Of a stretch of 64,000 bases of DNA, positions 1 through 49,640 are shown in pieces. Location: NCBI GenBank assembly GCA_024679065.1, contig JAGIQG010000020.1, positions 35,898,001-35,962,000 of the forward strand, written 5' to 3'. The DNA comes from Sphyrna mokarran (lineage: Eukaryota). The notes under the pieces were generated by a model that worked only from the letters and a program-made list of their open reading frames with translations, was not told where the DNA came from and searched no databases. How positions within the stretch are numbered: position 1 is the first letter of the stretch; each line of letters begins with the position of its first letter. Position numbers and translations under genes: made by a program.

Positions 1-1723
1 TCTAAACATTATATCTTTACCCTGACCTCAGCATCAAGCAAGAGACAGAACTCCACAGAAAGGCAGCAAATATGAATAAATTTTGGTTTTGTTAACCAAC
101 AAGGGTATCCTTAATAAAATTATCCAAATAAACATCTACTGCACAGAAGAATGCAGTCTATAAACATTAGCCACAGTTTGCAAATCAGGTCATGCCAACG
201 AACAATACATAGTTTCTCTTTGAAGGTTACTAACAGAGGATGGGAAATTAGGATGAATTCTGAGGCTTGTTTGATCAGCATTAGTTGTGGAAATGATTGC
301 ATAAAATATCATGAGTAACAGTAGCTTTGAGAAACTTGAACAATACTATATATATATATAGTGTTACAGAATGAGAAAAAAATTGATGTTGTAATGCATG
401 ACATGGGGGACAAAACATACACCTGAACTAAAGAAAGGATAATTTCAAACAAGGTATTGGGAAAGAAAAGGGATACAAGTCATACTTTAATTGATTAGCT
501 GTTGTTATTTATATGTTCAATCACTCTGCCAGTGGCAATGGATTACTCTTCAATAGAAGGCCTCTTATTTTCAAAGTTTATCCACTTGCAGACGCAAAGT
601 GCTTGCACTCTGCCCAGTTTAACATGTTGCTGTCCTTGTTTTAAATGCTGCAAGACTTTATCAACCGCACTGGACTAATGACCAGAAAGTTGCAGCTGCA
701 ACTCAAGACAGACAAGAACTTACTGAAAAAACAGCATGTACAGTGAGTGTAAAAAAAATTTCCTAAAGTATTCAAATGAGAGCTGGATGAGTTACTGTTA
801 ATACCAAACATCTCAACCTAAAGGTAGGTAATTGTATGGGGAACCTTATGTGGGCCACAACCAAACTTATTCTTCAGCTCTAATGTTAATTTTCCTCACA
901 CATCTCTCACTTTCCTGATTTAATTAATTCACATCTTTTAGCTTTCCCTTTGTTTGTGTCTATGGCACAATTTATATTATGATGACGGATTTTTAAAAAA
1001 TTTTTTTGAATGATGGTATATATTTTAAAAAAGTGTCCATAACTGAATAATCTGGGGGAGGTTAATAGAGATCTGTTCTTTGTGAGAACAGATAAAAGGG
1101 CAACAGTGTTAGTTCATGCATTTGTAATGACAGATTATGGTGTGGTTAAGTTACAACTAAGTAGGTACAATCAAAAATTTGCATTATAAATTAAATGGGG
1201 AATTGGATTTCCAGCTGTTAAACTTCAAAGAGAATTTCTGAACTGACAAGGAGTTTTTATGACTTGCATGGGAAGGTTTATTGAATTATGTTGACCTGGA
1301 AGCAGATGCAATCAGAAAACATAACAGATTTTATATTTGCAAAGATTAGTCAAAGATGTGTTTAAGTATAATGGAATCTGAAATGAAGAGAAAAAAGATA
1401 TTTAAGGAAAGTGTTGGTGAGTGGCTGTGAGCAAAATGTCCTGAAGATTAGATCTGTGAAAAGTAAAAATTTTGAATTTGAAGCAGTGATCCAGTTTCAA
1501 GCCAGAAAAATGTTTTTGTTTTGTTTTTCAGAAAGCAATTTGTTTCTGAATCTTTTTGGATTTCAACATCCAAGTGCTAAAGTTAAATGATCAACAAGTT
1601 TCCCTCTGGGATCTGGCTTATTCAGCAATGATGTAGAGATGCCGGCATTGGACTGGGGTAGTAAGAACTCAGTAAGAATCTAGCAACATCAATTTTAAAT
1701 CCAACCGATTTATTTGACAGTAA

Positions 1724-1758
1724 ATTTGCAAGCTTTCGACAGTCTTCGTCAGACAAAT
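1724..1758 (-). ncRNA. Minimal type I hammerhead ribozyme (left arm)
   Basis: Minus strand reads ATTTGT-CTGACGA-AGACTGTC-GAAA-GC-TT-GCAAAT: CUGANGA and GAAA cores, stem I with one G-U pair, vestigial palindromic stem III. Confidence 0.65.
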
Positions 1759-1860
1759 GCAGTGTTCTGGTCTGCAATAGCACACATATCAACACAGTCA
1801 CAGATTGCTGATTATTAGACTGTGTGTTGATATGTGTGCTATTGCAGACCAGAACACTGC

Positions 1861-1895
1861 ATTTGCCTGACGAAGAGTGTCGAAAGCTTGCAAAT
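1861..1895 (+). ncRNA. Minimal type I hammerhead ribozyme (right arm)
   Basis: ATTTGC-CTGACGA-AGAGTGTC-GAAA-GC-TT-GCAAAT. Stem I is 6 bp (ATTTGC/GCAAAT). Architecture matches PLE-associated minimal hammerheads. Confidence 0.7.
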
Positions 1896-2823
1896 TTACT
1901 ATCAAATAAAATCAGTTGGATTTAAAATTGGTGTTACTAGATTCTTACTGAGTTATTCAGCAATATCAGCTGTAATCATAACACTGGGTAATCCTATATT
2001 TTCTACAGAATTATTTATAACTTTTTTAATTTGATGCCATAGCCCTATCTTTCCTGCCCAATCTGGAAACATCAGCATTTCTTCATCATTATTAAATCAA
2101 ATTATTGAATTCAACCTATTATTGTTGGAGTCAGCACAATTGCCACAGGTTTGTCCCAACGCTGCTCAAGAAAGTAGTCTTCTCAGGAGCTAACCAGGAA
2201 CAAATATACAAAGTAACTCATTAGCCACAGTAATCTAAAAGATGTTTCTTCAATATTTAGTTCTAAAAATGTGCCAATTAAGTAATCAAATTGACCATGA
2301 AACAAGGGGGTATTGTTAACAGGAGGTTGACTTCTGTTGTAAAATTTAATGAACAAATGTACTTGTACAAAGCTTCCTAAATATATTTTAAAATAATTAC
2401 TTTGCTACAATTCATTTTTCATGAATCCTTATCTAAAACTAACTACTGAATATAGGGTATCATAGTTAAATTCAAGCTAAGTCTCATTCAACAGTACAAA
2501 TGAAAATTTCATTGGATTCCTGTTTGAAGAAACATGGATGATTTTATCAAGCCTAGCCAAGGTGAATAGGACTTGCACTTTCTCTCCATCTTAAATGTTA
2601 TCTCCTCAAAGCATATATTATGACAATTGCATTAGCATTAGTTAACCTTTGTCACCTCACCAAGTGCATTATACCTATGGCTGAGGCTGAACCTTTGAGC
2701 CTCTGCATCCCTTGTCCATGGAAATGGGGTGGCTGCTCAAATCTGGAAAATGACACTCATGCTGGGAAGTTTCCAAATTCTGATCTTCCCACCCTTGTCA
2801 GCAGAGCGGCATGAAACATTGCA

Positions 2824-5800
2824 GGACTGATTTTAACACATTAGCGAGCACTCTCCCAAACTTACCCTCTCACTGAATATTTAACAGATGCTGGTATGAG
2901 CAGCCAGCACCATAGGGTGTTCGCTGCCTATGGAGCAAAGACACAGATGGGTGACACAAGCGCTGGGGCACCCATAATCACCATATTGAAACTACAGCTC
3001 CAACAAGCCTTTCGGCCCACAAGTTGCACCAAACATGTCCCTATCTACTAGGCATACCTATAAACCCTCCATCTTACTAGGTTCCATGTACTTATCCAAA
3101 AGTTTCTTAAAGAAACATTATCTGCTTCCTCCATCACCGCTGGCAGACGACTCCACTCACTCACCACCCTCAGTGAAAAATTTACGTCTGACATCTGTGC
3201 TTACTCCCCAGCAGCCTAAACCTGTGTCCTGTTGTGGCAACCATTTCAGCCCTGGGGAAAAAGTGTCTGAGAATCCACTTGATCAATACCAAATCATTGT
3301 ATCCACCCCAAGCCCCAATGCAAGATGTGATGGTCTGTCATCATGCAACATACTCAAGGTCATGACAGGGTGTATTGGCAGCATCCCTTTTCAGGATGCA
3401 AACATTGGTCACCATTCGACTGCCCTCTGACATGTCAGGTTTCTTTTTGAGTGACTGGGTGGGGTGGGGGGTGGGCCTGGGCCTCAAACCCTTTAGCTCA
3501 TTGTGGTTTTCTCCTCTTTGAAGTGTGGGGTCTGGAAGATCATGGAGCCTGTTAAGTTGTCTATCCTAATTATTGGCATAAAGCAGTGGCAGTGACACCA
3601 ATACGTTGCAGCACCTCGCCAGGACTAGTGCCCTGCCAAGGAGGAAGGAGTTGGTCCTTTTGCTGTTCAAGGAGCAGCAAGACAGATACATAGTTAATTG
3701 GCCAAAGGTATTCCAATAATCAATCATACTAGCATATGTCAGATGCACTCCTGTAGAAGGTTGCATCTGTCCTAGGAGGAATGGTGGACCACTTTTATCA
3801 GACCCTGCAAGAACTAGCACCACATGGAATAGAAGGACCCACTCCGGTGGCCCAAACTCTCAGCAACTCTGAATTTCTATGTGACTGGCTCATTCCAGGG
3901 CAGCACGGGTGACCTGAATGCTTCTGGGAAGTCTCAGCTGCTCTTTTTGCAAGGGGTTAGATGTATATCAACTTGGACCAGGCTAGATAAGATGCCAGGG
4001 CTATGGGCTTCATCTTCAAGTCAGATTGCCCCAGGTGCAAAGACTGACTTCACCTCCATGGCCCTGTACGCTCCATGGCATCAGATTGCACAAGGGATAC
4101 TCATCTCAATTTGTAGCTCATCTGTGACCACACAATGCACATCATGCAAGTGTGTGCCATTTCCTCAGGAGCATTCATGACAGCTACATCATGGGGTGCT
4201 CTCAGATTCCAGCCATCTTTTGAGGGAGAGGGACAGCTGGAGGGATAACTAGTGCAGAGGCCACAAACACTAGTTGAGACCGAGGTTCACATTTCAACAC
4301 ACATCCTGGTCCAGGAGGCGATTGGCCTGCCAATGATAAGGTTCTGATAACTGGATCAGTCAGGGTGTGCCCTACGATTTCCTCCCCTTACTTCTGAGGG
4401 TCTTCCACATCATTGTTGTCTGCTGTGCTCTCCTCAACGTAGCTGCTTCAGAAGTGAGACCACCTGTATGTGATGGAAATGTTGAGGGTGAGGCAGAAGC
4501 CCAGCAGTGCTCGGGTGCTGATTGGGCTGATGTGCTGGAGATAGCTACGTAGGTCTTGCTTTGGGGAAGCAGAATTAGGAGCAACTTGCTTGCCCACCAA
4601 TTATGTGGTGCCAGCATTAGCCTAATAGGCTCCTATTCTGTTGCCAGGCATCATGATCAGGACACTGATTCCATGAATGGAACTCTGTAGAGAGTAACAG
4701 TAGTTTGCATTGAGAACAGAGCAATTCTCTTCCTCAGGTGATATGTCTGAGGCCTGTGTGACAGAGGCCTTAACATGTCCTGTCAATGAATGGGTTTATC
4801 ATAGGACTTAGAAATGCAGATTGTGTAGCATCAGTTACTACAGGCTCTACTCAGGGGTCCTGGTGCTCACATTCATCCTGCAGCCAGATGCAGCAATGAG
4901 GACTTGTCATATGGTCTTGTTAGTAAAACCAGAGTCAGAGGGTGCATCCTGGCACAATTCACTGGTCACCCTAGTGCTGCTCACCAGGCATTGGGCACTG
5001 CCAAGGAGTGAGGCCCAGATGGAAGTGCCGCCTGTGTGGTGGCAACATAGTACTGTCATTCTCACACTTCACAGGGTGATACCACAGACAAGGTGGAAGC
5101 TCTGTAGGTGAACAAAGTGAAATTTAATGCCAAATATTCAATACAAAATTATCTACTCTGGTGCCTATATTTACCCATGCACACTAAGTATCTACAATTT
5201 TTTTTAAACCTTCTTCACCCTCATGTTACACCTAGGTCTATCCCCAGGATCCAAAGCACACCCTATGCCAAGGTCTCCAATGCAGATGCCATCCTCACTG
5301 TGCTGCAGTGACAACACTATCTCCTTGGGTTGATGGCAATGGGATTCTTCCTTGCAATCTAAGGAGGGATGCTTCATCCCTTTCTGCCTTTGCAGCTGTG
5401 GCAAGGGGTCAGTAGTCCTAGCTCTACATCCTTCCAAGTTTCAGTTCCCTGGAACATCACTGTCTTCAAATGCTGTGGATTTTTAGTTGTAGGTTCACAC
5501 CAGTGAGTGTTCCAGAAGCCTGTCTACTTAGTAATCCCAGCTAAGTGAGTATCTGCACCAGGTGCCAGGTGTGGGTGACAGCTGTGATGCCTCAATGATG
5601 GAGTTGGCAAAGTCCCTCTGGCTGGAATCTGTGGGACCAGTGGCCCAAGGATGATGCAGTTTGTTCTTCTGGCCAATCTACAAGAGAAGGAACATGGGGG
5701 ATATGGAGAAGTACTGATTACATACTTGAGGAAGAATAGTATGTGTTCTAAATTTTCATGTTCTTCTGCTATCCACTTCTAGCACAGCAGGTACAGTCTT

Positions 5801-22359: not shown

Positions 22360-22452
22360 TTCTTGGGATTGAGCATCGCTGTCAAAGCCAGCACTTATTA
22401 CTCATCCCCAATTATTTTTGAAGGGACTTGTCAGCCACCTCTCAGACTGCTA
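22360..22452. mobile_element. Old LINE fragment, left half of the R2 target (continues at 25865)
   Basis: 22360-22452 joined to 25865-25955 aligns collinearly with the uninterrupted related copy at ~50302-50428. Confidence 0.7.
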
Positions 22453-25400
22453 TTTTAAATACACTCAGACGAGTGCCTAGTTCGAGTCTTTACGTCGCTC
22501 GTCGACGTTTTTGCCAACCTCTAGCGAAACCCCAGTCAGGGGGGCTCACTTGATCTTGATTGAGGTACGTGTGTTGGAGTCACCTCTAAGATGTTACTAG
22601 CTAGAGAACGTGAGTTGGGGTCACAGCTAAGGTGTTATAGCTAGGTCGTGTTGTCATCCCAGGTGTGTATGGGCTTACTGGTGAGCCAATTTTGTCGGTC
22701 CTTGGTACTCGGGTCTCTGTACCCGCGTGCATGGGGTGTCAATTTAGAGGGAATCATGCCGAATTAAGGGGGTTCATTTCATTGACACTTTAGTTTCGCC
22801 AATCAGCCTGTTATAGCACGTTTTTGGCCATGTGGGAGGAAACCGGAGTGCCCGGGGAAACCCCACGCAAGCACAGGGAGAATGTGCAAACTCCCGCAGA
22901 CATTGACCTTGGCCGGTAATCCGCCCTTGATCTCCGTAACTGCCCAGCCGACAGTGCTAGTCACCGGGCTGACGTGCTGCCCACAGTCAGTCCATGTCAG
23001 CTCACACTACCGGCAGTGAAGTTCTGGATCACTCTCAGATCTCCACCCAAGAACCATCCATGCACCACCCGCCGAGTGCATGCCCCTTGTCATAGACAAG
23101 GTGGACTGTGACACCTGTAGGTGTAATAGGTGTTAGTATACATATTTACACATCACACGCTGTACAGTATATACAAACACACAGTCCGACAAACACCAAA
23201 GAGTCCTCCATATTGACATATGGGCTCTGCAGAGGGCAGTTTGCCATGATGTCTGACAAGTGGCCAGCTTGTCCTCCGGTTGTGATCGCCTCTCACCTGT
23301 CGTTGAAGATCCCCAATATCTCCAACGGGAGTGACAAGGTGAGCCTTGAAATTTGTTGGGCGAATGAACGGAATCTCTTTATTCCCAGGAAGGCCATGAG
23401 GCTGTTATTCTTTTCCAACCATTTGCCCCTGGCGCCGACAACAAATCCAAAGTATTTGGGGTTCGGGCATCCCGTCAATTCCTCAATTTCTGGTCCCAGA
23501 TGTTGGTACTTCTGGCACTTCTCCTGCCACGCCTTCTCCAGACTGTCATAGTTGTCTTCAAACCGGACTGTCACATCCACCACCGCTACCTGCTGATCTT
23601 TTTCCCTCTTGAAGACGATGTCCGGCTTCCAGAGGCTGCCGTCCTTGGCAATGAGCCTTGGCTCCAGGTATGATGTCCAGCCGTATTTTCCAACATACTT
23701 ATGAAGTTGGTCCAGGATCTTATTATGGCGTTTGATCCGGCAGTTTTTCACGAATGGGCAAAAGCCTGAAATGTGACCGAGTGTTTCAAGACCTGTCCCG
23801 CACCTTCGACAGGTCTTTGTGGCAGAGGGGTTCCCTCTTGACAGGGTCACCCTCGTCGGGTATAGGTTGCACCGGAGTAGCATGTTATATACCAGGCGAT
23901 GGGACTTCAGCTGGTATGCAGCCTTCATCCAACTGTTTGAAATTCTGTCATCGTGGTAGTAGTGAACTCCCACTCCTTGTGATGTGAGCTGTCTCCACTT
24001 GTGGAATTCCCATTCCCTCCACCCAGCATATCTATTCAGTGGTTTGCTGGGTCCTGTCTCCTCGGCCGCCAGTATCGGCAGTGCGGCTCTGATCATGGCT
24101 GTTTCGTCATTGCCACCGAATTCCCTTGTAGGCATGAAGTCTTCGATGTCCCTCAGAGCCTTGAGGGATCTCAGATCTTCGATGTTTCTGCCAACGTCCT
24201 GTTCACAGAACTGGAATGAGGCGCGAATGACTTGATCTGTGGAGGCAGACAGTGCTTCCCATTTTCGGATCACCGCAGATGGTATCTGGATCTCGAGCTT
24301 AGGAATGCCCAGACCTCCATTTCGCGCCCGCGAATAGAGGATTCCATCTGTAGTATGAGGTGGAAGGTGCAGGAACTGCTTGACAGCATGGCGTATTAAT
24401 TGGTCCAGTTTTACCAGCGTGTTCTGTGACGCTTCAGTTAGGATCAGGTGATAGTACAGCCTTGGTATGACATGGACAGTTAGCAGCTCGACGCGTTGCC
24501 TTGGGCGAAGAGCTGCTGCTTGTAGACTGGAGATCCAAGTCTTCAGCCTGTCTTCCCATGCTCCTTCTTCCACACCAGCCCACGGGTCTATCCGGGCTCC
24601 CAGGTATTTCTCTGTCTCACCTGGTGGGATGTATGCAATCTCTTCCTTCTGAATCCTCCAGTTTTTGCATTGATAAATAAAGGTCTTCCTCTTACAGGTG
24701 AAGTGGAATCCTTTGGTCTTGTTGATGTTGACAGTAAGACCAGTCATTTCGCAAAAAGTCTGAAGAACCTTCAGGTTCCGTACCATCCCGGTGTGCGAGT
24801 CACTGAGTAGGGCAATGTCATCAGCGAACGCAAGGGCGGAGCAGTTGATTCTCACTCCATCTAGCATCATACTGACACCAGACTTAGCCGCTTCCAGACT
24901 GCACAGCAGCGGATCCAAAGCAATATTGAATAGTACCGGTGAGAGCGGGTCTCCCTGCTTGACACCCCTCTCGATTGTTATTGGGGTGGTTTTCGACTTG
25001 TCGCCCTCCACCACCGTTGTGTTGCCAGTGTAGAGATTCTGAATGAGCTCCACAAAGGCGTCTGGTAGTTTGACCCTCTGTAATGCTTTAATGAGTAGTT
25101 TGTGACCAACTGAGTCGAACGCTTTCGCCAAATCAACAAAGACGACTGCGAGGTCCTTGTGGTTTTTCTTAGCTCCCCTCATTATATTTTGCAACACTGC
25201 AATGTTCTCATTGCACCCGGGAGTAGCTGCCAAAAACCCTTTCTGCCTTGGGTTTATGTCGACTGTCTCACTCAGTCGTTTCGCCATGATCTTTGTAAAT
25301 AGGCGCGGCAGCATTGGACCGATGGTAATTGGTCGCCAGTTGTCAATGTTTTTAAGGCGTTCCCTGTCCTCGCATTTTGGGATCAGGACCGTTCGACTCT

Positions 25401-25864
25401 GTTTCATACAGAGAGGGATCGTCTTTGAAGCCAGCCACAAGGAGAAGAGACGAGGTATGCGGGTTTCGTAGGCCTCGTGTATCTTCCGGATGTCCTCCAA
25501 TTTCTTCCCATCCGGTCCAGGCGCGCTATCCTCCTTTATGCCCTTGATGGCCTGGGTGACCTCCTCTTCGGTGATTGGCTTCATCAACTCACCGTTATCT
25601 GTATTCCCATTGTACGCTTGGAATTTATTGATATTTGCCTTATTGTTCTGACTGGAGAGTTTCTCCCGAAAGCTTGCCTCCAGTTCCTCAGTCGTAAGTG
25701 GACATTTCATTTGTGTAGGCGCGCCCATGATCTGCCAGGCTAGTTGACGCCTATTGTTCTTATAGAGCATCTGTGTTGCTCTAAAGACGGATTTCTGTTT
25801 TGCCCATCGTTTCTTTGCTCCACTATTAACCTCGTGCCGAGGCCCTCGCATGAATTTCATGAAT
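22453..25864 (-). mobile_element. 5'-truncated R2-clade non-LTR retrotransposon inserted outside rDNA
   Basis: CpG-rich block with sharp boundaries. Contains the RT-RLE ORF and a ~840-nt 3' UTR ending ATTTAAAA. Both flanks belong to one interrupted host repeat and no rRNA sequence is nearby. Confidence 0.9.
22784..22982 (-). mobile_element. tRNA-head plus V-domain SINE core embedded in the R2 3' UTR
   Basis: Minus strand GGGCAGCACG..ACTAGCACTG..GGAGTTTGCACATTCTCCCTGTG..CTCCGGTTTCCTCCCACA..GATTGGCGAAACTAAAGTGTC is collinear with the HE1 copies in this window. A and B boxes are degenerate and the HE1 tail is absent. Confidence 0.85.
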
Positions 25865-25875
25865 TGTAGGTACAT
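23293..25875 (-). CDS. R2 retrotransposon protein (RT, zinc knuckle, restriction-like endonuclease), lacking N-terminal zinc-finger/Myb domains
   Basis: 860 aa with no stops. RT motifs PGPDG, NWRPITIG, QKGF, FVDLAKAFDSV, GVKQGDPLSP, LAFADD, KYLG, GGLGIP. CCHC knuckle CRRC..ETLGHISGFC, then RIKRHN, KPDI..VDVTV..K..KY and GARGKW. Confidence 0.95.
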   Translation of the reverse strand: MYLQFMKFMRGPRHEVNSGAKKRWAKQKSVFRATQMLYKNNRRQLAWQIMGAPTQMKCPLTTEELEASFREKLSSQNNKANINKFQAYNGNTDNGELMKPITEEEVTQAIKGIKEDSAPGPDGKKLEDIRKIHEAYETRIPRLFSLWLASKTIPLCMKQSRTVLIPKCEDRERLKNIDNWRPITIGPMLPRLFTKIMAKRLSETVDINPRQKGFLAATPGCNENIAVLQNIMRGAKKNHKDLAVVFVDLAKAFDSVGHKLLIKALQRVKLPDAFVELIQNLYTGNTTVVEGDKSKTTPITIERGVKQGDPLSPVLFNIALDPLLCSLEAAKSGVSMMLDGVRINCSALAFADDIALLSDSHTGMVRNLKVLQTFCEMTGLTVNINKTKGFHFTCKRKTFIYQCKNWRIQKEEIAYIPPGETEKYLGARIDPWAGVEEGAWEDRLKTWISSLQAAALRPRQRVELLTVHVIPRLYYHLILTEASQNTLVKLDQLIRHAVKQFLHLPPHTTDGILYSRARNGGLGIPKLEIQIPSAVIRKWEALSASTDQVIRASFQFCEQDVGRNIEDLRSLKALRDIEDFMPTREFGGNDETAMIRAALPILAAEETGPSKPLNRYAGWREWEFHKWRQLTSQGVGVHYYHDDRISNSWMKAAYQLKSHRLVYNMLLRCNLYPTRVTLSRGNPSATKTCRRCGTGLETLGHISGFCPFVKNCRIKRHNKILDQLHKYVGKYGWTSYLEPRLIAKDGSLWKPDIVFKREKDQQVAVVDVTVRFEDNYDSLEKAWQEKCQKYQHLGPEIEELTGCPNPKYFGFVVGARGKWLEKNNSLMAFLGIKRFRSFAQQISRLTLSLPLEILGIFNDR

Positions 25876-26613
25876 CCCATATGGTGCTGTTAAGTAGCAA
25901 GTTCAGGATTTTGATCCTGTAAAAGGAACAGCAATGTAACTCCAAGTCTGAGTGCAATTTTTTCAAATGTACACAATGCTGACCAAGATGAGAAAACCAG
26001 TGCGAAGCCTTGTAGGCAGCACAGCAAGCTTTTCTTGCTACATTGAGCAACACTAATTTCAAAGGGGAAGCAGGAATCAATCAGCTGGAGATGAGGGCCT
26101 AATAAGTCAAAGAACACCCTGATCTCAGATTTTAAAAAGCACCCCTCTTCCCAAAATGGGGCCATACACAGGGCACCAACTGGGCATTATGCTAACTTGC
26201 CCCCAGTGTAGGTCTTCATTTCTAAAATACAACTACAGATAGATTTTACCTTGAAGTTTTTGTGATGATGTCCTGGGAGTGATATGATTGACCTTCAATA
26301 AGCACAACCATCTTTTATGCTAGTTTTATACTACCCCCTGATTTCTCTTCAGTCCAGTTTTGCAAGGCCAGACTAGGTCAAGTTCTATCTTGATGGTATG
26401 GGCGATCTCTGCCTCACCCTCTCTAGAATTCTATTCTTCTGTTCATATTTGGACCAAGGCTATAATTAGATCATGAATTTTGCCTTGGCAAAACACAAAC
26501 TGAGCATGTTATTGTTGCACAAGTGCTGCTTGATAACACATCTGATGACACTTTTTTTGCTGATGATTAAGCAGAGATTAATAGGCCAGGTTAGATTTGT
26601 CCTTGTGTACCAT

Positions 26614-48966: not shown

Positions 48967-49017
48967 CAATTTCCTGAGGGCCGTTTCGTCCAAAGCGGAG
49001 TAGCGGTCTGCGGACAT
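48967..49017 (-). CDS. SMTN: Smoothelin first coding exon (MSADRYSALDETALRKL)
   Basis: AAC ATG start and 17 codons resembling the human smoothelin N-terminus MADEALAGLDEGALRKL. Immediately followed by a phase-0 donor TTG|GTGAGA. Lies in a CpG island and is too short for the ORF track. Confidence 0.85.
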
Positions 49018-49439
49018 GTTCTGACTAGGCTGTTGTTGCTGGCTCAGTATCCCCGAGAAGGATGACCTGATCAGAGGAATTTTTTGTTGCGGAAGTTGGG
49101 CTGTAGCTCGAGTCAGACTGGATGCTCTTTGCGGGTATAGATCTGAAATTGGATACGGAGTCCAGGTAAAGTTCGACTATCACTCCAGTGACAGAGAGCA
49201 GCAACTGGTAGTCTGATTGCTGCAGGTGTGGCACACGTTCTTTACTCCGGTAAACAATCGCGGCGACGAACAAAATGGCTTGTCTTCTCTTAAATATAAG
49301 AAGCAGGAAAAACGGGGGTGTAAGGCACTCTAGATAAAATCTACACGTCAACACCGAATTCCTGCCGTCGTCGTCGTTATTGTTCCTCCTCCCCTGTTTT
49401 TCAAATTCCAACCTCACGATCCTAAGTACGTTCCATTTG

Positions 49440-49640
49440 CAACCGTTTACCTCAGCGCGAGCTTCAAATAACGACCATCCCCGCCAGGCCCCGCCCGACG
49501 GCACCGATTCTGCCCAATCGCGGCCTGACGTCTCCGCCAGCCGCTTGATGATTGGAGCGTGGCGGCCAACCGTCGCTCTGGCGCCGCGAGGACTCGGCCC
49601 ACTCTGATCCGCGCACCTTCGGCAGACGTCATCTCACCAT
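49440..49640 (-). promoter_or_regulatory. CpG-island promoter of SMTN, with a possible short non-coding exon 1
   Basis: Very CpG-dense. GC box GGCCCCGCCC 49487-49496, CCAAT 49514-49518, ATTGG 49551-49555, CRE-like TGACGTC at 49526-49532 and 49625-49631 (minus). Candidate donor GAG|GTAAAC at 49450. Confidence 0.75.

Follow-up and report, generated by a model that had tools for sequence, protein, structure and literature searches.

Genomic Context and Structure of the R2 Copy

The window (the whole stretch of 64,000 nucleotides analysed here) contains on its minus strand a likely first coding exon of SMTN (48967..49017) with 17 codons, an ATG and a GT donor. Immediately upstream of this start codon lies a CpG-rich stretch with a 202-codon open frame (49025-49633), likely the promoter or 5′ UTR of the gene. 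On the same strand, 93.6 kb downstream of the ATG exon, there is a phase-0 exon with a match to the Smoothelin domain. Provided that these two exons are spliced together, the retrotransposon copy which they flank likely sits in sense orientation within a 93.6-kb SMTN intron, as a preliminary description of this DNA had supposed.

This copy (22453..25848, minus strand) is a 5′-truncated R2 element of subfamily A, corresponding to nucleotides ~1563-4959 of an element of 4.96 kb. It is 98.7% identical to the full-length copy L033, and its ends were set by comparison with 77 other copies. A naturally short element, suggested by the many matches that start at one position, was considered and rejected since longer copies run 1.56 kb further upstream, which also shows the copy to be truncated at 25848, not to extend to 25864 as first described. 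Without the first ~1560 nt, comprising the ribozyme, zinc fingers and Myb domain, the window copy is not autonomous. It has six private substitutions in 3393 nt (0.18%) and a one-codon deletion.

A stop-free frame of 869 codons (25902..23293, minus strand) is the sole frame of more than 202 codons in the window, in agreement with its description as the only intact transposable element ORF there. The uninterrupted R2 reading frame reported previously is thus real, but only 851 codons derive from the element (23293..25848, minus strand), these encoding an N-terminal extension, reverse transcriptase (RT), thumb, CCHC knuckle and restriction-like endonuclease; zinc fingers and Myb are absent. The first 18 codons, with both in-frame ATGs, belong to the flank and to the 5′ junction (25849..25857, minus strand), an 8-nt duplicate of the neighbouring flank plus one base which provides a chance in-frame ATG and is missing from longer copies. 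The ORF possesses an RT domain (PF00078, E-value 2.8e-35) as well as CCHC knuckle and PD..D..K nuclease motifs. Its best matches among solved structures are the vertebrate R2 proteins 9nl3, 9dou (R2Tg) and 9nl2 (E-values 1e-176 to 1e-174), all spanning the whole ORF, followed by 8gh6, an R2 of Bombyx mori length (1114-aa insect-type chains; 1e-79), and L1 ORF2 (1e-30). The CpG observed/expected ratio is 0.66 for the element and 0.08 and 0.06 for its flanks, confirming CpG retention against a poor background, and an Rfam search of the window gave no match to rRNA or any other family, in line with the reported lack of rRNA flanks.

The 3′ UTR is composite. Its terminal 72-nt module (22453..22525, minus strand) is common to R2 and a non-coding partner element (94%), and a stem, a loop-pairing and a terminal hairpin, compared by eye with the description of R2Tg (PMC12222951), appear to fit a pseudoknot-hinge-stem arrangement. 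There is a 41-bp tandem duplication at 22567-22644. At 22683..22712 (plus strand, antisense to the R2 RNA) a 30-nt segment matches the junction of the 28S 3′ end and the 3′ spacer (30/33 columns, E-value ~1e-6, against contig C1614). Diverged versions of this piece occur in subfamily B and in the partner; it could pair with downstream pre-rRNA in a co-transcript or could be a capture scar. A high-copy SINE-like fragment, presumably a V-SINE, lies antisense at 22813..22982 (plus strand) and is fixed in the 3′ UTR of both R2 and the partner (78% identity to the partner version), with a read depth about tenfold higher.

At the insertion site, the post-nick target bases are TAGCA (22448..22452, minus strand), TAGCC being found in 28S. 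A putative upstream target motif resembling 28S positions -26 to -19 (25871..25878, minus strand) is recognised from its sequence and from its enrichment across the family. From comparison by eye with a homologous repeat near 50410-50370, the T of this motif would correspond to position -20, provided that five target bases were lost; an automated search for the window locus found no empty site. Read contigs from run X1, possibly the source sample, cross both junctions by only ~25 and 29 nt, short of the 31 nt taken as bridging. In a second sample, 6 reads were counted over eight rare-letter sites, where homozygosity of every carrier would have given 37 (or 20). This is compatible with heterozygosity of the window copy alone, and some of the letters are perhaps assembly errors; no empty-site junction appeared among these reads, whose depth is insufficient to reveal one.

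The Full-Length Element and Its Affinities

Full-length copies measure 4.96 kb and have a single ORF, which encodes RT, a CCHC knuckle and, at the C-terminus, a restriction-like endonuclease. Their protein has a Myb domain and three N-terminal zinc fingers (CCHH, CCHC, CCHH), with an E-value of 2.7e-38 for the alignment to ZnF3-Myb of R2Tg. The first 21 nt of these copies are the same as 28S from -28 onwards, a leader reached in 44 of the 78 copies examined, eight of these 44 having an intact ORF. Behind the leader, helices P1, P1.1, P3 and P4 of HDV type and the catalytic C are legible by eye, with two mismatches in P2. The region gave a minimum free energy fold with a z-score of -1.9 by a method that is not pseudoknot-aware, and no Rfam match to a ribozyme was obtained in the full-length copies. 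It is considered a candidate 5′ HDV-like ribozyme that would cut at 28S -28. Rearranged copies are also present (L002, L053, L105, L135, L144), showing 5′ inversion, internal deletions that join both ends, or internal duplication.

In an RT tree (FastTree, 91 of 153 usable RT regions, with no labelled NeSL, R4 or Utopia row) the window RT groups with shark proteins (support 1.0), and the sister group is a clade that includes 9nl2 (P0020) and a cuckoo protein (0.977). Among named database proteins the closest, at 60% identity, belongs to a catshark, which makes a shark the likely host. The presence of Myb excludes Utopia, by the criterion that Utopia elements lack this domain (PMC13188248). By every testable feature save confinement to rDNA, the family is a vertebrate-type R2 of lineage A, and its placement among cartilaginous fish elements holds; as 78 of 79 3′ ends lie outside 28S, it is filed as a variant and not as a typical lineage-A R2.

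The ZnF1 contacts Q312/R315 are conserved with respect to R2Tg. In the RT6a loop, K-R-K takes the place of T-K922-D923 of R2Tg, with no equivalent of the acidic D923; in R2Tg, K922-D923 is a base-contacting pair (PMC12222951). The RT6a lysine is visible by eye in two published shark R2 rows (PMC13188248). The loop is a candidate only for the determinant of any looseness in targeting.

Non-Coding Partner

The family is accompanied by a 1.6-kb protein-less element with 299 assembly matches and many subfamilies. In common with R2 it has a 28-nt 28S leader, the SINE-like fragment and the final 72 nt. A tblastn search for R2 protein in the partner returned no match. Of 30 loci fetched, with one locus entered twice, 28 had readable 3′ ends; none of these 28 lies in 28S and 21 have a TAGC-like start, and two further partner copies carry downstream 28S. 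The partner loci recorded were L146-L195, L085, L086, L088, L097 and L107. Some partner copies (L107, L163) are inserted in the leader of another copy, and the upstream half of the 28S target has 272 matches scattered alongside the partner. On contig C741 (L086/L145), a partner copy with ~370 nt of 28S lies in an array of a 47-bp satellite, with a degraded second copy 4 kb on, possibly a low-quality duplicate.

Dispersal and Target Sites

R2 elements as a rule target one site of the rRNA genes. Here, a 22-mer of the ORF matches the assembly 155 times, on chromosome-scale contigs (at most two mismatches; control 0), and 74 places agree exactly with the 3′-end pattern. After removal of three duplicate loci and of a copy whose end is not intact, 79 autonomous-type 3′ ends were examined, of which 78 are outside 28S and one runs into it. 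The single or rare off-target event offered as one explanation of the window copy can therefore be set aside.

The sites are not random. Following the nick, three or four positions agree with TAGC in 55/78 cases (background 5.7%) and all four in 23/78 (0.4%). For insertions in repeats, the post-junction bases match the empty repeat and are hence target-derived. Upstream, an offset-tolerant test, run on R2 and partner 5′ flanks after homologous ones had been merged, detected a GGGAGTA-like motif in 20 of the 68 independent flanks against 11.4% of control windows (p 5e-5), and in 7/22 truncated copies against 8.8%; a caveat is that two of eight control 7-mers were nominally enriched as well. Base counts in fixed register upstream of the 5′ junction gave no clear motif, and the signal is confined to the offset-tolerant test. 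The 5′ junctions are imprecise, mostly with 0-10 bp deleted in resolvable cases, along with some duplications, larger losses and truncation.

A single position in a repeat that we take to be ORF2 of CR1 type (the same ORF2 codons) was hit by 17/112 3′ flanks, examples being L044, L093, L101, L137 and L161, with one pair among the 17 being a likely duplication. More hot spots exist within this repeat (L095, L098, L129, L160, L168, L174). Copy L009 lies within an older R2-like relic (L089:6881-8815) with ~69% identity to the family, which places dispersal before the subfamilies studied.

Off-targets of R2Tg have a match of 4-5 nt after the nick and the 28S -25 to -19 motif (PMC12222951). As far as the site sequences indicate, the dispersed sites carry the same signature as these published rare off-targets, and targeting is leaky, not changed. 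The full pattern of no preference and no 28S use, as in R2NS elements, was not seen, given the TAGC bias, the upstream motif, the hot spots and the canonical junctions. The altered targeting put forward earlier finds no support, given the continued use of the canonical nick and the resemblance of off-target sites to the 28S site. Relaxed targeting, the other form of that proposal, is plausible, but an ordinary low leak in a slowly mutating genome could explain the positions too.

Canonical 28S Use and Selection

The post-nick 28S sequence has just four exact matches in the assembly, all four behind an R2-type 3′ end, which indicates that intact rDNA units are missing from it. Copy L031, sister of the window copy in the tree of copies, sits at the exact canonical nick with 106 nt and 125 nt of 28S on its two sides, and contig C1614 opens with 15 nt of R2-type 3′ end and continues through the rest of 28S into spacer-like repeats. 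Instead of a fresh insertion, L031 may represent an rDNA junction that was retroposed. Both L031 and the published R2-1_SCa carry just ~106-110 nt of 28S upstream, with sequence other than rDNA before it. The two begin close to one 28S position, where pre-rRNA templates may tend to break.

Comparison of subfamilies A and B gives dN/dS values of 0.19 for the zinc fingers, 0.13 for Myb, 0.07 for RT and 0.06 for the nuclease. Private changes show pN/pS of 0.47 and 0.61, with 8 and 30 stops. The DNA-binding domains are under purifying selection and the dispersed copies decay.

Age and Source of the Copies

In a tree of 66 copies the branching is ladder-like, the tips are long, and three or more waves can be distinguished. 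Of 26 pattern matches for subfamily A, two turned out to be older. The 24 subfamily-A copies examined have 0-1.0% private substitutions, and two of the 24 have none, which upholds the view of a recently active family. "Young", as the window copy had been called, applies in a relative sense only: at the epaulette shark mutation rate of 7e-10 per base per generation (PMC10587355), its 0.18% private divergence would represent up to ~2.5 million generations. For the youngest long copy (L002), the nearest full-length copy is at least 0.7% away.

Read depth was taken from three runs of one other sample (~3% of each). Total depth equals 139-165 copies at nominal coverage, against 155 assembled, and up to twice that number if calibrated on noisy flanks. 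These totals had pointed to almost no rDNA copies, a possibility dropped when site-by-site counts showed an excess of window-like reads. At five sites, 23-32% of reads lack the common letter, the window's letter being present in only 1-12 assembled copies, giving an excess of 20-38 copies, a count which includes third letters and rests on a coverage figure uncertain up to twofold. Sites 25042, 25075 and 23289 show no such excess. The ~20-40 unassembled near-identical copies probably form a homogeneous pool, slightly different from the assembled copies, in unassembled rDNA, a location that we infer, and could alternatively be dispersed insertions private to the sample read. Incompatible site pairs are rarer at short than at long distance (0.21 vs. 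0.29, p 0.0005), a mosaic signal among copies that fits recombination of sources in an array, and template switching would give the same. A search for 3′ transduction from one dispersed copy to another was negative; the flanks that copies share are accounted for by CR1 hot spots, 28S and one likely duplication.

Origin of the Dispersed Copies

Off-target insertion by the element's own protein is the core common to the readings and is held with high confidence. Movement of the copies by another agent, either CR1 machinery in trans or a DNA-level scatter of rDNA pieces, is very improbable: the 17/112 sites at one CR1 position and the placement of L031 inside a 28S fragment could be read in its favour, but the CR1 sites are internal, with collinear repeat sequence to either side of the insertion, the CR1 tail is absent, and the 3′ ends stop at the R2 end, 78/79 without 28S flank and with an R2-type target bias in the flanks.

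The reading we prefer, with a probability of a little under one half (roughly 0.47), is one of master copies in rDNA combined with a choice of sites looser than in avian R2s, leading to at least 155 insertions at partly matching sites elsewhere. The rDNA masters would be co-transcribed by Pol I and freed at 28S -28 by the 5′ ribozyme, giving the 21-nt 28S leader that is observed. From the site statistics and the behaviour of R2Tg, the protein would bind a partial match to -25 to -19, nick, and start priming at points where the 3′ end of the RNA has a few 28S bases able to pair with the target. The 5′ junctions would then be resolved imprecisely, as is observed, including truncation as in the window copy. 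Dispersed copies are seen to decay and source lineages to be under purifying selection, and the protein-less partner would use the same R2 enzyme. Looseness is likely in view of the scale of dispersal, the at least three waves, the 0/28 partner ends in 28S and the RT6a substitution. Against it, counts of genomic positions do not measure specificity per event, as a 2026 review warns (PMC13580325), and with an R2Tg-like off-target signature and conserved ZnF1 Q312/R315 no change in recognition is demonstrated.

The closest competitor, somewhat less probable, is that the enzyme is as specific as bird R2s (~0.1-1% off-target), and that a genome which mutates slowly retains off-target copies over millions of generations as the rDNA copies turn over. 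Off-target insertion amounts to ~1% for TaGu and ~0.1% for ZoAl, with primer-complementary bases after the nick (PMC11371274), and the signature here is identical to that of R2Tg off-targets, with conserved DNA-binding domains. Given the low shark rate of 7e-10 (PMC10587355), the 24 subfamily-A copies over at most 1% divergence would by our own arithmetic need no more than a few insertions per million generations, and a great white shark R2 entry without upstream 28S (PMC13188248, Table S2) indicates that dispersal may be common in sharks. Such a leak would have to account, however, for more than 450 dispersed copies including the partner and for the RT6a substitution; moreover, a Drosophila survey has many non-28S R1 copies and, in its available text, names none for R2 (PMC2718515), and very few R2s without canonical specificity are known according to the 2026 review (PMC13580325). 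A bolder form of the preferred reading, which we regard as doubtful, makes the element a semi-generalist, the first among vertebrate lineage-A R2s, that follows a minimal code of the -25 to -19 motif and a 4-5 base primer match, possibly through a shark-wide RT6a change; it would have colonised more than 450 sites with its partner, and some of these may by now act as sources outside rDNA. That the family is mostly out of rDNA, with dispersed full-length copies as sources that are read within host transcripts and freed by a self-contained ribozyme, appears unlikely. The leader in 44/78 copies (intact ORF in 8/44), the ribozyme helices P1, P1.1, P3 and P4 with catalytic C in leader-bearing copies, and a partner with many subfamilies and 0/28 ends in 28S are in keeping with such an escape, but no copy bears the unique 3′ flank of another dispersed copy, the youngest copies have no source among the assembled intact ones, and the excess of near-identical read copies, the mosaicism and the captured piece of 28S 3′ spacer all point to rDNA. 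The rDNA masters of the preferred reading are in agreement with these last features.

Implications

Lineage-A R2 proteins are under development as gene-insertion tools, and their value rests on near-exclusive 28S targeting. The at least 450 natural off-target insertions by a close relative, with an R2Tg-like signature, provide a data set on the failure of specificity, and allow tests of a question left open in the 2026 review, namely whether R2 specificity forms a continuum and is reflected in genomic positions (PMC13580325). If the RT6a loop explains the looseness, it would offer a handle to tighten or retarget R2 enzymes. The family also shows that, in a vertebrate genome, R2 can behave like any other insertional mutagen and sustain passenger elements that are themselves dispersed.

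Comparison with Known Systems

The chondrichthyan lineage-A elements R2-1_STig, R2-1_CCar, R2-1_CMax, R2-1_HSa, R2-1_SCa and R2-1_SAc (PMC13188248) agree, on inspection by eye, with the family described here in their three-finger, Myb and RT sequences. In the 13 of 15 Chondrichthyes table entries compared, as partial sequences, the shark R2s are reported as 28S-embedded, and the available part of that source mentions neither dispersal nor a non-autonomous partner, whereas both are present here. In the literature searched, no published dispersed R2 of sharks or of vertebrate lineage A was found.

R2Tg/TaGu and the 9nl2 protein (PMC12222951, PMC11371274) resemble the family in domain order, ~40% identity, a sister RT clade, the 28S leader from -28 and the off-target signature (+1 to +4, -25 to -19). 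However, these gene-insertion tools are more than 99% on target in cells, while most assembled copies here are off target. R2NS-1_SMed and R2NS-1_CSi (PMC5035012) are likewise R2 families outside 28S with young copies, but these come from flatworms, belong to clades D and C and have been described as non-specific, in contrast to a vertebrate lineage-A element with canonical junctions and partial site preference.

The targeting machinery of Drosophila R1 is unrelated to that of R2. The endonuclease of R1 is of the APE type. Leaky R1 of Drosophila ananassae and D. pseudoobscura is nevertheless the nearest analogue, with at least as many copies outside 28S as inside, sites of partial identity and bits of 28S flank (PMC2718515). 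Like the non-coding partner, the Drosophila R2 SIDEs have a 28S leader and an R2 3′ end with no R2 protein (PMC3414825); they are described inside 28S, whereas the partner here is dispersed at 299 or more sites.
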